Below, piece after piece: positions 36,101 to 42,100 of a DNA stretch of 64,000 bases. Within the stretch, counting starts at the first letter, position 1. Every line of letters begins with the position of its first letter. The position numbers were made by a program. The DNA lies in the NCBI RefSeq assembly GCF_056712565.1, contig NZ_CM160072.1; one strand, 5' to 3'.

Positions 36101-39100
36101 AAGCGCAATGGCGGACCAGATGCTGCTGGATGCCAAAAATCCGCAAAGCGCGGGCAACCGGCGCATTGAGATTATGGTGCTGACCAAAAGTGCGTCCGAT
36201 ACGCTGTATCAATACTTTGGTCAGCATGGGGATAAAGTGGTGCAGCCGCTGGTGCAAAAGCTGGATAAGCAGCAGGTGCTTTCGCAGCGAGCGCGTTAAA
36301 TGCTGAATCTTTACGCATTTCTCAAACCCTGAAATCACTGTATACTTTACCAGTGTTGAGAGGTGAGCAATGCGTAAAATCATTCATGTGGATATGGACT
36401 GCTTTTTCGCAGCGGTGGAGATGCGCGACAATCCCGCCCTGCGCGATATCCCTATTGCTATTGGCGGCAGCCGCGAACGACGGGGGGTAATCAGCACCGC
36501 CAATTATCCCGCGCGTAAATTTGGCGTACGTAGCGCTATGCCGACAGGGATGGCGCTCAAATTATGCCCGCATCTCACCTTGCTTCCAGGGCGCTTTGAC
36601 GCCTACAAAGAAGCCTCAAATCATATCCGCGAAATTTTCTCGCGCTATACCTCGCGCATTGAACCGTTATCACTGGATGAAGCCTATCTCGATGTCACCG
36701 ATAGCGTCCATTGCCACGGTTCTGCGACCCTCATCGCCCAGGAAATCCGCCAGACGATCTTCAACGAGCTGCAACTGACGGCGTCTGCGGGCGTTGCGCC
36801 GGTCAAGTTTCTCGCCAAAATCGCCTCCGACATGAATAAACCCAACGGTCAGTTTGTGATTACTCCGGCTGAGGTTCCGGCATTTCTGCAAACCTTACCG
36901 CTGGCAAAAATTCCCGGCGTCGGCAAAGTCTCAGCGGCTAAACTGGAAGCGATGGGGCTACGAACCTGCGGTGATGTGCAAAAGTGTGATCTGGTGACTC
37001 TGCTCAAACGTTTTGGCAAATTTGGCCGCATTTTGTGGGAGCGTAGTCAGGGCATTGACGAGCGCGACGTTAACAGCGAAAGGTTGCGAAAATCCGTCGG
37101 TGTAGAACGTACGATGGCGGAAGATATTCATCACTGGTCTGAATGTGAAGCGATCATCGAGCGGCTTTACCCTGAACTGGAGCGTCGTTTGGCAAAGGTA
37201 AAACCTGATTTGCTGATTGCCCGCCAGGGGGTGAAATTAAAGTTCGACGATTTTCAGCAAACCACCCAGGAACACGTCTGGCCGCGGCTGAATAAATCTG
37301 ATCTAATCGCCACCGCGCGTAAAACCTGGGATGAACGCCGCGGCGGGCGCGGTGTGCGACTGGTGGGGCTGCATGTGACGTTGCTTGACCCGCAAATGGA
37401 AAGACAACTGGTGCTGGGATTATGATGTATACTATTTTGTATATTCTGGTGTGCATTATTATGAGGAGATCACTGTATGCATCGAATTCTCGCTGAAAAA
37501 TCGGTCAATATCACTGAGTTACGTAAAAACCCAGCTAAATACTTTATTGATCAACCTGTTGCGGTTCTTTCTAATAATCGCCCCGCAGGATATCTCTTAA
37601 GTGCCAGCGCATTTGAAGCATTAATGGACATGCTTGCAGAACAAGAGGAGAAAAAGCCCATAAAGGCGCGCTTCCGTCCGAGTGCTGCAAGATTAGAGGA
37701 AATTACACGCCGCGCTGAACAATATCTTAATGATATGACGGATGATGATTTCAATGACTTTAAGGAATAAGGATGCGGGTATTCAAAACAAAACTTATTC
37801 GCCTGCAACTTACAGCAGAGGAACTTGAAGCGTTAACGGCGGATTTTATTTCCTATAAGCGTGACGGTGTTTTGCCAGATATATTTGGTCGTGATGCACT
37901 CTACGACGACTCGTTTACCTGGCCATTAATCAAATTTGAGCGAGTTGCTCATATTCATCTGGCAAATGTGAATAATCCATTTCCGCCACAGTTGCGCCAA
38001 TTCAGCAGAACGAATGACGCAGCGCATTTGGTATATTGTCAGGGCGCGTTTGATGAGCAAGCATGGTTGCTCATTGCCATTCTGAAACCTGAACCTCATA
38101 AACTGGCTCGAGATAACAACCAAATGCATAAAATTGGGAAAATGGCAGAAGCGTTTCGCATGCGTTTTTGAATTTATATTATGAATAACATACAAATAAG
38201 AAACTATCAGCCTGGTGATTTTCAGCAACTATGCGCTATTTTCCTTCGAGCTGTTACGATGACGGCGAGTCAGCACTATTCTCCACAGCAAATTGCCGCC
38301 TGGGCGCAGATTGACGAATCTCGCTGGAAGGAGAAACTCGCGAAATCACAAGTGCGGGTTGCAGTTATTAATGCACAACCGGTTGGTTTTATTACCTGCA
38401 TTGGACATTATATCGATATGTTATTTGTTGAACCGGAATACACCCGACGCGGGGTTGCCAGCGCTTTGTTAAAACCATTGATTAAGTCTGAATCCGAACT
38501 TACGGTGGACGCCAGCATAACCGCAAAACCCTTTTTTGAACGTTATGGTTTTCAGACAGTTAAGCAGCAGCGCGTTGAATGCCGGGGAACGTGGTTTACT
38601 AATTTTTATATGCGATATAAACCGCAACATTAAATCCAGCTTGCAATGAAAATAACGCCCGTCTAGTATGTGCGCGTTTTCTTATTCCACAAACTGCAAG
38701 GAGGTAAATCATGACAAATCCTTTATCAATGACTCTTTGCAGACCTTTCCAGGATTAATTCTTTTTTCTTGCCCTGGATTCGTCTGCCATTTCCTGATTT
38801 TTATTCATAAATGGAATGGTACATGGGCAAATATATTCGTCCCTTATCCGATGCGGTATTTACCATCGCATCTGATGACCTGTGGATCGAAAGTTCAGCG
38901 ATCCAACAATTACACACCACGGCAAATTTACCCAACATGCAGCGCGTTGTGGGGATGCCAGATTTACATCCCGGACGCGGCTACCCGATTGGCGCAGCGT
39001 TCTTCTCTGTTGGTCGTTTTTACCCGGCACTGGTCGGCAATGATATCGGCTGCGGCATGGCGCTATGGCAAACAGATATTCTCGCTCGCAAATACAACGC

Positions 39101-42100
39101 CGATAAGTTTGAAAAGCGATTATCAGATCTGGATGACGTTGCTGAAGAAAGCTGGCTGGAGGAAAACCTGCCGTCAGCATTTGCACAGCATCCGTGGCGC
39201 AACTCGCTTGGCTCCATCGGTGGCGGTAACCACTTCGCAGAACTGCAACAGATTGATCAAATTATCGACGCGGAACTGTTTGCACTGGCTGGTCTGGATG
39301 CGCAGCATCTGCAACTGCTGGTTCATAGCGGCTCGAGGGGATTGGGGCAGTCTATTTTACAGCGGCATATTGCCTCGTTTTCGCATCATGGTTTGCCTGA
39401 AGGCAGTGACGACGCGCTACGGTATATTGCGGAACATGACGATGCGCTGGCGTTTGCGCGTATTAATCGCCAGCTGATCGCTTTGCGCATAATGCAACAA
39501 GTTAAGGCCACCGGAAGTCCGGTTCTGGATGTGGCGCATAACTTTGTTAGCGCGTGCCAAATCGGCGATCAACAGGGCTGGTTGCATCGTAAAGGCGCCA
39601 CGCCGGATGACAACGGTCTGGTGATTATTCCCGGTTCACGCGGCGATTACTCCTGGCTGGTTAAACCTGTTGCGAACGAAAAAACGCTCCACTCGCTGGC
39701 GCATGGGGCGGGGCGTAAATGGGGGCGCACCGAGTGTAAAGGGCGTCTGGCAGCGAAATACACGGCGACGCAACTCTCGCGGACTGAACTTGGCAGTCGG
39801 GTAATTTGTCGCGATAAACAACTCATCTTTGAAGAAGCGCCACAAGCCTATAAATCGGCTGAAAGCGTGGTGCAATGTCTGGTGCTGGCTGGGTTAATTA
39901 TTCCTGTCGCGCGACTGCGCCCGGTGCTGACGCTCAAAAACAGTGGAGGGAAAAAAGGATGATCTTGCTACAACTCTCCTCTGCTCAGGGGCCGGAAGAA
40001 TGTTGTCTCGCAGTGAAAAAAGCACTGGACAGGCTGATTAAAGAAGCTACCCGACAGGACGTCGCGGTAACGGTGCTGGAAACAGAAACGGGTCGCTACT
40101 CTGACACACTGCGTTCGGCGCTGATTTCTCTGGATGGCGATAACGCATGGGCTCTAAGCGAAAGCTGGTGCGGCACTATCCAGTGGATTTGTCCGAGTCC
40201 GTATCGGCCTCATCATGGGCGCAAAAACTGGTTTCTGGGCATTGGGCGTTTTACCGCTGATGAGCAGGAACAATCGGATGCAATCCGTTATGAGACGCTG
40301 CGTTCGTCGGGGCCGGGCGGTCAACATGTCAATAAAACCGACTCGGCGGTACGCGCCACGCATCTGGCATCCGGTATTAGCGTGAAGGTTCAGTCAGAGC
40401 GCAGTCAGCATGCTAACAAACGGCTGGCGCGATTACTGATTGCCTGGAAGCTGGAACAACAGCAACAGGAAAATAGCGCGGCGCTGAAATCGCAGCGGCG
40501 AATGTTCCATCACCAGATTGAACGTGGCAACCCGCGACGAACGTTTACAGGGATGGCTTTTATCGAAGGGTAATGAAGGATGATACTGCCGGAAGGCGAT
40601 TAAACGCCATCCGGCAGCAAATCAAATAATTACTTCGCCGGAATTTCTTTCAGCAGTTCAGTCAGCAGTGTCCAGTAATGGCCAACGCTTTCGATATGAA
40701 CTTGCTCATCCGGGGAGTGTGGACCGGTGATGGTTGGCCCGATAGACACCATGTCCATTTCCGGATACGGTTTTTTGAACAGGCCACATTCGAGGCCCGC
40801 GTGGATAATCTGGATGTTCGGCGTTTTGTTGAACAGACGCTGATAGGTTTCACGTACCAGATGCATTACCGGAGAGTTAGCGTCCGGCTGCCAGCCAGGA
40901 TATGCGCCTTTTGCTTCGGTTTTCGCACCTGCCAGTTTACCCAGCGAATCCAGCATGCTCACTACGTAGTCTTTACCGCTGTCGATCAGAGAACGGATCA
41001 GGCAGTGAATTTCTACGTTATTGTCGGTCATGGTCACCACACCGACGTTCAGGGAGGTTTCGACCACACCTTTTGCCACGTCGGAGTTGCGGATCACACC
41101 GTTCGGGGTGGCGTTCAGCAGACGAATAAAGGTATCGCGAGATTTCGCAATCAGGGCAGCTTTATCGTTCGCAACAGAGTCCAGCAGCAATGCCAGATTT
41201 TTCTCTTTCTCTGCCAGTTCGTTTTTCAGGATCTCCTGATAGGTATCCACCAGAGATTTCAGGGCGTCGACTTTATCAGCTGCGACAGCAATGGTCGCAA
41301 AGGCTTCACGCGGGATGGCGTTACGCAGTGTGCCGCCGTTGAAATCAATAAGACGCAGGTCCAGTTCTTCTGCATGACCCGCCAGGAAGCGCACCAACAG
41401 TTTGTTGGCATTACCCAGGCCAACGTGGATTTCACCGCCGGAGTGACCGCCTTTCAGACCTTTTAAGGTTAACTTGAAGGTTTCAAAACCAGCTGGAACC
41501 GCTTCACGATCTAAATGCAGGTTGGAGGTGAAGTCGATACCTCCCGCACAACCCATGTAGATTTCACCTTCTTCTTCGGAGTCGGTGTTAATCAGAATAT
41601 CAGCCTGCAACCAGTTGCTCTGTAAGCCAAAAGCACCGTCCATACCGGCTTCTTCGGTCATGGTCAGCAGCACTTCCAGCGGGCCGTGAACCACGTTTTC
41701 GTCAGCCAGAACCGCCAGTGCAGAGGCCATACCAATGCCGTTATCCGCACCCAGCGTGGTGCCGCGTGCTTTAACCCATTCGCCATCAATATAAGGCTGG
41801 ATAGGATCTTTAGTGAAGTCATGCACGGTGTCGTTATTTTTTTGCGGCACCATATCGAGGTGGGCCTGCAAGACGACCGGTTTACGATTTTCCATACCTG
41901 CGGTAGCAGGTTTACGAATCAGGATATTACCTACCTGATCGCGTTCGACATGGAAACCTTTCTCTTTTGCCCAACCAACAATGTATTCAGCGAGTTGCTC
42001 TTCATGATAGGACGGGTGAGGAATAGAACAGATTTTGGCAAAAATATCCCACAGCGGCTGTGGAGATAATTGAGACAGTTCAGACACGTTAAGTCTCCTT

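Follow-up and report, generated by a model that had tools for sequence, protein, structure and literature searches.

A conserved upstream open reading frame and a predicted alternatively pairing leader RNA precede the ribosome-repair operon rtcB2-prfH

RtcB2 and PrfH form a known ribosome-repair module. The gene pair was first described, together with its likely translational coupling and a deletion affecting it in Escherichia coli K-12, by Baranov 2006 (PMC1586002). On ribosomes whose decoding centre has been cut, PrfH brings about peptide release, after which RtcB2 ligates the rRNA (Tian et al. 2022, PMC9304027); for the RtcB2 of strain ATCC 25922, ligation was demonstrated on 16S rRNA cut between A1493 and G1494 (PMC9304027, PMC9223846), and the chromosomal rtcB2-prfH operon shields this strain against colicin E3 (PMC9223846). 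Here we describe an allele of this module in a 64,000-nt stretch of contig NZ_CM160072.1 (RefSeq assembly GCF_056712565.1), referred to below as the window, and in particular the leader located directly upstream of rtcB2, which contains an upstream open reading frame (uORF) of 15 codons. The pair, its coupling, the K-12 deletion and the function against colicin E3 are already published, and the gene pair adds nothing new to them. In the literature on RtcB2-PrfH we found no mention of a leader, an upstream ORF, a native promoter or the control of expression; the uORF leader is the new part of the locus and is apparently undescribed.

There are several known ways in which a short leader ORF can control the genes downstream of it. 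The attenuators of ermC, cat-86 and cmlA resemble the rtcB2 leader in having a short upstream ORF driven by a Shine–Dalgarno (SD) sequence, a downstream ribosome-binding site (RBS) that is buried (in the rtcB2 leader, predicted to be buried) in a hairpin, and a segment in or near the leader ORF with two alternative partners, and in both cases the output is expected to follow the position of the ribosome. The rtcB2 leader differs from them in that it has no conserved arrest peptide and implies no drug, its own SD is also predicted to be masked (in hairpin H1, described below), in the computation it is the start of the ORF and not an internal stall that acts as the "on" position, and the regulated genes repair the ribosome. 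The tnaC-tnaAB and toiL-topAI systems, the latter of which responds to ribosome-targeting antibiotics in general, share with it a very short uORF, a pyrimidine-rich spacer after the stop codon and the lack of an intrinsic terminator; in contrast to them, the rtcB2 uORF peptide is not conserved, all three stop codons are used, and the spacer is rich in U without being clearly C-rich. In the case of prfB (+1 frameshift) and arfA (non-stop mRNA), the expression of a quality factor is likewise tied to the process that it serves, but neither of the devices involved (a frameshift with an internal SD in prfB, RNase III cleavage in arfA) was seen in the rtcB2 leader.

The uORF of the window is preceded by the SD sequence AAGGAGGT (38698–38705), separated by a 5-nt spacer from its ATG (38711). 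A preliminary description of this DNA, made from the sequence alone, had pointed to a 15-codon ORF with a near-ideal SD at this place and had suggested that it could be a leader peptide or a sensor; its coordinates and its SD were correct. Within one window, the uORF by itself is not significant and lies within chance, as two occurrences of AAGGAGG followed by 4–9 nt and ATG were found against 0.75 expected, and two or more were obtained in 16 of 100 shuffles. The reality of the uORF therefore rests on comparative evidence.

For this comparison, rtcB2 loci were gathered by protein similarity, without use of the leader (8 from one-genome-per-species contigs and 10 via named homologues with 62–81% identity). 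A metagenome scan was performed with a DNA pattern that fixed only TTTGCRG, CYGCC and GGANTGGNNNATGGRCA, and did not include the SD, the AUG or the ORF. The uORFs were called by an SD-anchored finder. The scan returned 78 loci, 43 of them with an RtcB2-like N-terminus, and each of these 43 carries an SD, an ATG and an ORF of 13–15 codons. Altogether, an SD, an AUG and an ORF of 13–16 codons precede rtcB2 in 59 of the 59 leaders collected, including every Enterobacterales genome checked. The uORF has exactly 15 codons in Escherichia, Klebsiella, Citrobacter, Salmonella, Kosakonia and Cronobacter, as well as in Entomohabitans, Intestinirhabdus, Pragia, Limnobaculum and Proteus; the uORFs of Providencia and Pseudomonas sp. 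YH-1 are shorter, with 14 and 13 codons, respectively. At the loci collected by similarity it ends 60–95 nt before the rtcB2 ATG, with the exception of K. spallanzanii and Intestinirhabdus, which contain insertions. The leader directly follows dinB in Salmonella, Kosakonia and Cronobacter, and is found in a wholly different context in Pragia and Limnobaculum. The preliminary description had named conservation in related strains as decisive for the small ORF, and the uORF turned out to be kept far past them. Among E. coli genomes the leader is 95–100% identical in 5391 of 5426, a divergence too low for a selection test.

A covariance model (R1) generated from the leader alignment gave 65 matches in 716 kb, all of them located directly 5′ of rtcB2, with a single match in the 64-kb window and none in the approx. 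35 chance loci of the metagenome scan. The model also recognized a Ralstonia solanacearum megaplasmid (36.6 bits; uORF MRYTVPPLCGPRLG-stop) and an IncC plasmid of Klebsiella pneumoniae (54.2 bits). The leaders of Microbulbifer, Shinella and Tritonibacter have no detectable similarity to the others, yet an SD-driven uORF of 11–16 codons is present before rtcB2 in these more distant proteobacteria too, which would be expected by chance in 1–4.5% of shuffled leaders for each distant leader. In total, a uORF was found in five of six distant plasmid-borne rtcB2-prfH operons. A search of Rfam 15 with positions 36000–42500 of the window (both strands) gave no match at E≤1.

The minimum free energy (MFE) fold of the E. 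coli leader consists of three adjacent hairpins, H1, H2 and H3, formed by four segments (Table 1). In H1, CUGCAAGGAG, which includes the uORF SD, pairs with CUCUUUGCAG (uORF codons 8–11). In H3, UGCCAUUUC pairs with GGAAUGGUA immediately 5′ of the rtcB2 AUG. At its base, H2 can be extended to a 6-bp helix, GCAGAC/GUCUGC (consensus GCAGRC/GYCUGC), formed by segments 2 and 3 and referred to below as helix 2:3, which takes GCA from H1 and UGC from H3. The sequence GCAAAGGAGG of segment 1 is nearly invariant in 46 sequences, and TTTGC(A/G)G of segment 2 is invariant, the GCA at 38739–38741 being shared by the H1 and 2:3 pairings.

Helix 2:3 is 97.5% paired in the 46 distinct sequences and was the sole helix proposed by RNAalifold when run unguided. 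In its two columns that were free of the search pattern, the pairs are GC 25, AU 16 and GU 4, and CG 26, UG 12 and UA 4, respectively, and inspection by eye revealed GCGGAC/GUCCGC in Proteus, GCGGGC/GCCCGC in Providencia and GCAGAU/AUCUGC in Entomohabitans. Helix 2:3 covaries, and is the best-supported element of the leader. H1 is 89–93% paired, with only single-sided, wobble-preserving changes (C>U opposite G, A>G opposite U), while the inner hairpin of H2 is 68–73% paired across lineages and shows double-sided changes at four of its six pairs. For the duplex of segments 3 and 4, almost every lineage gives a free energy of −10 to −12 kcal/mol. For the structure as a whole, 80–84% of cells are paired, as against 76–79% in shuffles (0/500) and 30–54% when the alignment was slid by 1–3 columns, and the covariation score exceeds those of all 500 shuffles and all slid registers. 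These comparisons lend moderate support to the whole structure.

The uORF peptides are of 33 distinct kinds, in which the first 7–8 codons vary freely; the residues that recur (C10, R11 and Q14, in most Enterobacterales) are those encoded by nucleotides of the helices. Premature in-frame stops were found in none of the 33 uORFs, as compared with 30 and 14 of 33 in the other two frames. In one clade (MINNLTPFAG..S-stop) and in the K. pneumoniae IncC copy (MQNTSTSFAGLVR-stop) the invariant TTTGCAGG block is read in a different frame, and the stop codon is shifted to match, the end position of the ORF being unchanged. Across lineages the stop may be UAA, UAG or UGA, and it is situated 17–19 nt past TTGC in every one of them; in the stretch from the AUG to the conserved block, indels are multiples of three or are offset by a shift of the stop. 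Since the peptides vary, early stops are missing, a change of frame is compensated at the stop, and any stop codon may be used, the constraint appears to lie in translation across this RNA with a fixed termination point, and not in the peptide product. The lack of peptide conservation therefore argues for a leader ORF that is translated, and not for one that encodes a specific arrest peptide.

How such an ORF could act is suggested by a calculation in which a 30-nt ribosome footprint was placed at positions of the uORF and the free-energy cost of unpairing the rtcB2 RBS was computed. As a mean of 25 lineages, the opening cost fell from 11.1 kcal/mol for the free RNA to 8.1 kcal/mol with the footprint on the uORF start (21 of the 25 showed a drop of 1.5 kcal or more), and amounted to 11.3–11.7 kcal/mol with footprints at codon 8, codon 11 and the stop. 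Opening becomes cheaper in the model because the occupied segment 1 frees segment 2 for segment 3, which removes the base of H3.

We therefore propose a dwell-sensing switch. At rest both RBSs would be masked, by H1 over the uORF SD and by H3 over the rtcB2 SD, and expression would be low. A ribosome on the SD and start of the uORF would hold segment 1, and segment 2 would then pair fully with segment 3; H3 would lose its base, and the rtcB2 RBS would open more easily. A ribosome moving on would melt H2 and allow H3 to re-form, and the output would scale with the time that ribosomes spend on the first codons of the uORF. This dwell time should be longer when ribosomes initiate yet decode poorly, as may be the case after cleavage by colicin E3. 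The PrfH produced would clear such ribosomes from the leader, closing a feedback loop. Colicin E3-cleaved ribosomes reportedly initiate but decode poorly, and for this reason would be expected to dwell at the switch position of the model.

The best overall explanation, to which we assign a probability of about 0.55, is thus a known module preceded by a uORF leader that acts by the proposed dwell-sensing mechanism. Its parts differ in strength. It is likely that the leader is a functional cis-regulatory element that requires translation of the uORF, and it probably lets the operon sense the behaviour of ribosomes. The specific direction and trigger of the switch are put forward tentatively, as one possibility. 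We consider it rather doubtful that the leader reads ribosome integrity directly, i.e. that cut ribosomes initiate, stick on the first codons and refold the leader, upon which intact ribosomes translate rtcB2-prfH. If this were the case, an mRNA would sense rRNA damage directly and induce its repair, with PrfH clearing the damaged ribosomes and shutting the system off, and this arrangement, found on resistance plasmids as well, would have been conserved all the way from Enterobacterales to Pseudomonas and Ralstonia. The leader offers a concrete hypothesis of how bacteria may detect ribosome damage, namely through ribosome behaviour on a sensor ORF, and the covariance model finds rtcB2-prfH leaders in metagenomes and on plasmids. 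As regards the sensor idea of the preliminary description, the comparison speaks for it: the SD, AUG, length and stop are conserved, and conserved, partly covarying helices that are predicted to mask the rtcB2 RBS interlock with the uORF.

A number of observations weigh against this interpretation. Concerning the structure, H1 shows no double compensatory change; for H3, the cognate and swapped partners are not significantly different (permutation p ~0.08); the number of pairs with double-sided changes is not significant (reached in 81/500 and 49/500 shuffles); the shuffle controls overstate significance because the sequences are related; and the E. coli leader has an MFE within the usual range (z = −1.3). 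The footprint calculation is an equilibrium one, with an assumed transcription start site (TSS) and assumed footprint edges; when mean unpaired probability is taken as the read-out, its effect is small and uneven (0.31 to 0.38), and it fails in Microbulbifer, Shinella and Tritonibacter and is weak in Ralstonia. The rtcB2 of Novosphingobium has no uORF, a different N-terminus and a strong SD of its own. The uORF is not annotated in RefSeq in ATCC 11775, K-12 or the sampled genomes; its translation is absent from the Stringer 2021 supplement and from nine Fesenko 2024 supplements (tables of small ORFs of Enterobacteriaceae); and neither an occurrence of its peptide sequence in a full-text literature search nor a ribosome-profiling record was found. 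In all published protection assays, expression was driven by heterologous promoters and the native leader was left out. Finally, a conserved arrest peptide is ruled out by the variation of the peptide and the change of frame in one clade. The missing arrest motif lowers the claim of an erm-type arrest; it does not lower the claim that the leader acts via ribosome position.

Among the alternatives to dwell sensing, we consider unlikely a Rho-dependent attenuator similar to tnaC or toiL, in which a ribosome stuck at the uORF stop (e.g. a damaged one that release factors RF1 and RF2 cannot terminate) would block Rho loading and allow transcription to reach rtcB2-prfH, Rho otherwise terminating the untranslated, RBS-masked leader. 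The spacer between the uORF stop and the rtcB2 AUG, 60–95 nt long in 31 lineages and on average 65% pyrimidine (U 42%, C 23%, G 16%), could serve such a mechanism, no intrinsic terminator was found, the stop has a fixed place in the H2 loop in all lineages, and a masked rtcB2 RBS would itself expose the transcript to Rho polarity. However, the spacer is short and U-rich, not C-rich (C/G ~1.4, and 0.8–1.0 in several lineages), there is neither a conserved arrest peptide nor a Pro-stop, the use of UAA, UAG and UGA leaves no signal specific to one release factor, and a footprint at the stop codon leaves the rtcB2 RBS closed in the folding model.

Distinctly unlikely, in our opinion, is a constitutive damper without any sensing, which would keep rtcB2-prfH translation at a low, fixed level (excess PrfH could be harmful). 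Both RBSs are masked in the predicted resting fold, the promoter resembles an ordinary sigma-70 promoter, and the chromosomal operon protects ATCC 25922 without a reported inducer (PMC9223846), all of which a damper would explain; but it would need neither a perfect 8-nt SD nor an ORF that stays open in two frames and at three lengths, and neither a stop fixed in a hairpin loop nor a covarying helix sharing 3 nt with each of the two masking hairpins. It is highly improbable that the ORF is accidental and that the conserved block is a DNA promoter or operator, or an RNA element independent of translation. Within the single window the SD and ATG are indeed at chance level, and the literature supplements searched contain no record of translation, but the SD, AUG and stop are invariant over ~15 lineages although they were not used for finding the sequences, indels between AUG and block come in threes or are compensated at the stop, and the unrelated leaders of three more genera have SD-driven uORFs whose chance is 1–4.5% each. 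The least probable reading is that the 15-residue peptide is itself a functional product, such as a micropeptide with RtcB2, PrfH or the ribosome as its target: the presence and length of the ORF are conserved and C10, R11 and Q14 recur in most Enterobacterales, but these residues are encoded by the helices, the N-terminal halves of the 33 peptides are free, the MINNLTPFAG..S clade and the IncC plasmid change frame, and the distant leaders encode unrelated peptides.

Two further types of control were considered for the leader and dropped. Control by CsrA via GGA motifs was discarded, as the middle GGA is missing from Pseudomonas-type leaders, and a canonical intrinsic-terminator attenuator was ruled out, as no hairpin is directly followed by a U-run.

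The leader is preceded by a predicted sigma-70 promoter (Table 1), with a GC-rich discriminator, GTGCGCG, at 38670–38676 and a predicted TSS at ~38676–38678; a consensus promoter scan had missed this candidate because of its score of 8/12. The combination of a −35 TTGCnn, a 17-bp spacer, a −10 TAnnnT and a GC-rich stretch was found in 41 of 46 distinct upstream sequences. The conserved promoter is located 37–55 nt 5′ of the uORF AUG and was not part of the search pattern, and a terminator scan between yafP and rtcB2 revealed none. The conservation of the promoter and the lack of a terminator after yafP suggest that the operon has a promoter of its own, whatever the read-through from dinB; rtcB2-prfH thus appears to be transcribed from this predicted, conserved promoter and not only by dinB-yafNOP read-through. 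The leader would mark rtcB2-prfH as an independent transcription unit, and not the tail of the SOS-regulated dinB operon. The stretch from the −10 hexamer to the start is GC-rich in almost all lineages (GTGCGCG, ACGCGCA, GCGCCCG and similar), and the discriminator resembles those of the stringently controlled promoters of rRNA and ribosomal-protein genes, which, by analogy, hints at ppGpp/DksA control of this ribosome-repair operon.

Table 1. Features of the rtcB2-prfH leader and operon (positions in the window)
Feature	Coordinates	Strand	Details
Predicted sigma-70 promoter	38641..38669	+	−35 TTGCAA 38641–38646, 17-bp spacer, −10 TAGTAT 38664–38669
Whole conserved leader, ~140 nt	38688..38828	+	covariance model R1, 127.6 bits, E 2.5e-37
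Segment 1, CUGCAAGGAG (38694–38703), overlapping the uORF SD AAGGAGGU (38698–38705)	38694..38705	+	pairs with segment 2 (MFE)
uORF, 15 codons, MTNPLSMTLCRPFQD-stop	38711..38758	+	SD+AUG ORF before rtcB2 in 59/59 leaders
Segment 2, CUCUUUGCAGAC, uORF codons 8–12	38733..38744	+	pairs with segment 1 (H1) or segment 3 (helix 2:3)
H2 inner hairpin, UCCAGG 38748–53 / CCUGGA 38773–78	38748..38778	+	MFE; uORF stop UAA 38756–58 in U-rich loop
Segment 3, GUCUGC 38782–87 (with segment 2) and UGCCAUUUC 38785–93 (with segment 4)	38782..38793	+	UGC common to both
Segment 4, GGAAUGGUA, weak rtcB2 SD region	38813..38821	+	predicted to be masked by segment 3 in H3; 9-bp MFE helix
rtcB2, release-factor-H-coupled RtcB RNA ligase, 379 aa	38823..39962	+	RefSeq coding sequence, NF007153, TIGR03073
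ATGA start/stop overlap, rtcB2/prfH coupling	39959..39962	+	read directly from sequence
prfH, peptide chain release factor H, 204 aa, GGQ 120–122	39959..40573	+	TIGR03072

The segment around rtcB2-prfH is 100% identical to that of E. coli ATCC 11775, and the gene order is lafU, dinB, yafN, yafO, yafP, a 189-bp gap, the rtcB-family gene, prfH, pepD (on the opposite strand) and gpt. RtcB2 scored 643.3 bits with NCBIfam NF007153 (cut-off 407; profile positions 1–378 of 379) and 621.7 bits with TIGR03073 (cut-off 271.8), and PrfH scored 328.9 bits with TIGR03072 (cut-off 166.65). The active-site motifs of RtcB2 are intact (HGAGR with His294, GGGNH at 133, HSGSRG at 168 and DIGCG at 74), His294 being the residue that was changed to N by Tian et al. 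2022 (PMC9304027). PrfH aligns only to residues ~115–305 of RF2 chains, release-factor domain 1 being absent, and is identical at 203 of 204 positions (K20R) to chain 8 of PDB entry 7SA4; a PDB search gave no structure of RtcB2, the best match being RtcB of T. thermophilus (3e-31). Given profile scores far over the cut-offs, the match to 7SA4, and the coincidence of His294 and Gln122 with the catalytic residues that were mutated, the locus is virtually certain, as far as its sequence can tell, to be an intact allele of the known RtcB2-PrfH module. The module of ATCC 25922 (PMC9304027, PMC9223846, 7SA4) has the same RtcB2 length, His294, ATGA coupling and position between yafP and pepD, and no difference separates the proteins.

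The preliminary description had given both genes as intact, with 383 and 204 aa, and as coupled by the ATGA overlap. The overlap is seen directly in the sequence, both genes are intact, and the length and GGQ motif of PrfH hold; RtcB2, however, has 379 aa. Neither gene contains stops or frameshifts, frameshifts being one of the findings that the preliminary description had named as refuting its reading. The longest rtcB ORF (38811–39962) does have 383 aa, but the RefSeq start is the ATG at 38823, and the NF007153 alignment begins at residue 5 of the longer ORF. With the start at 38823, the catalytic His of RtcB2 is H294, which, with Gln Q122 of PrfH, matches the numbering of Tian et al. 2022, and the upstream ATG is not retained in frame in Citrobacter, Pseudomonas and one further clade (L029). 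For these reasons the ATG at 38823 appears to be the true start. The same 4-nt overlap of rtcB2 and prfH occurs in Salmonella, Kosakonia, Cronobacter, Pragia, Limnobaculum, Entomohabitans, Ralstonia and Microbulbifer.

In K-12, ykfJ and prfH are annotated as pseudogenes, and alignment with the window revealed a deletion of ~1027 bp across the rtcB2/prfH junction (window ~39028–40054) and a 127-bp ERIC-like insertion at 38804/38805; the pseudogene fragments that the preliminary description had given for K-12 are thus borne out. K-12 does retain the leader, at about 253,216–253,330. A deletion of ~1000 nt has been reported in K-12, W3110 and O157:H7, the locus being intact in CFT073, UTI89 and 042 (PMC1586002). 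At least 80% of the locus is present in 2709 of 5426 complete E. coli genomes, and the remainder mostly carry the K-12-type allele. An ERIC/IRU-like element has landed repeatedly at this insertion site, which lies in the H3 loop between segment 3 and the rtcB2 SD: a full 127-bp copy is present in K-12 (locus L002, 3335–3461) and in Escherichia sp. MOD1-EC7003, shorter forms occur in the H3 loop of Escherichia sp. E1V33 and K. spallanzanii, and E. coli O26 and O111, with intact operons, apparently have ~56 bp extra at this site. The locus is not mentioned in the papers on RNA structure and 3′ ends in E. coli that were searched.

The genes yafN-yafO-yafP (37477–38633) separate dinB from the leader in Escherichia, and a yafP-like gene is found at this place in Klebsiella and UBA3516. 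All three are absent from Salmonella, Kosakonia, Cronobacter and Entomohabitans (loci L011, L013, L015 and L020), in which the leader follows dinB; because of this absence, these toxin-antitoxin and acetyltransferase genes look like later insertions into a dinB|rtcB2-prfH|pepD arrangement. In Intestinirhabdus alba (L019, 1197–3312) the H2 loop contains an insertion of ~170 nt and prfH is broken up into two ORFs (144 and 61 aa), and this locus looks to be decaying.

Several plasmids carry the module in other surroundings. On the conjugative IncC resistance plasmid NC_021667.1 of K. pneumoniae (L104, 1024–2912), a diverged rtcB2-prfH pair with 54% identity, complete with leader and uORF, is located directly 5′ of sul1, so that ribosome repair may be travelling alongside resistance genes. 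The IncFIB plasmid pCP127 of E. coli EC93 (L109, 1451–9137) contains a copy of the chromosomal lafU-dinB-yafP-rtcB2-prfH-pepD-gpt-frsA segment that lacks yafN-yafO and has an overlap between yafP and the end of dinB; 15 plasmid places of the locus were counted in the E. coli genome set in total. On a plasmid of Shinella sp. HZN7 (L107, 1–2941), a second RtcB-family gene is located directly 5′ of uORF-rtcB2-prfH, and a VapC toxin gene downstream.

The other occurrence of AAGGAGGT in the window (22481) precedes an ORF of 96 aa (22494–22784), which overlaps the end of a 479-aa ORF (21080–22519); this pair (21080–22784) looks like a toxin-immunity or effector-immunity layout.

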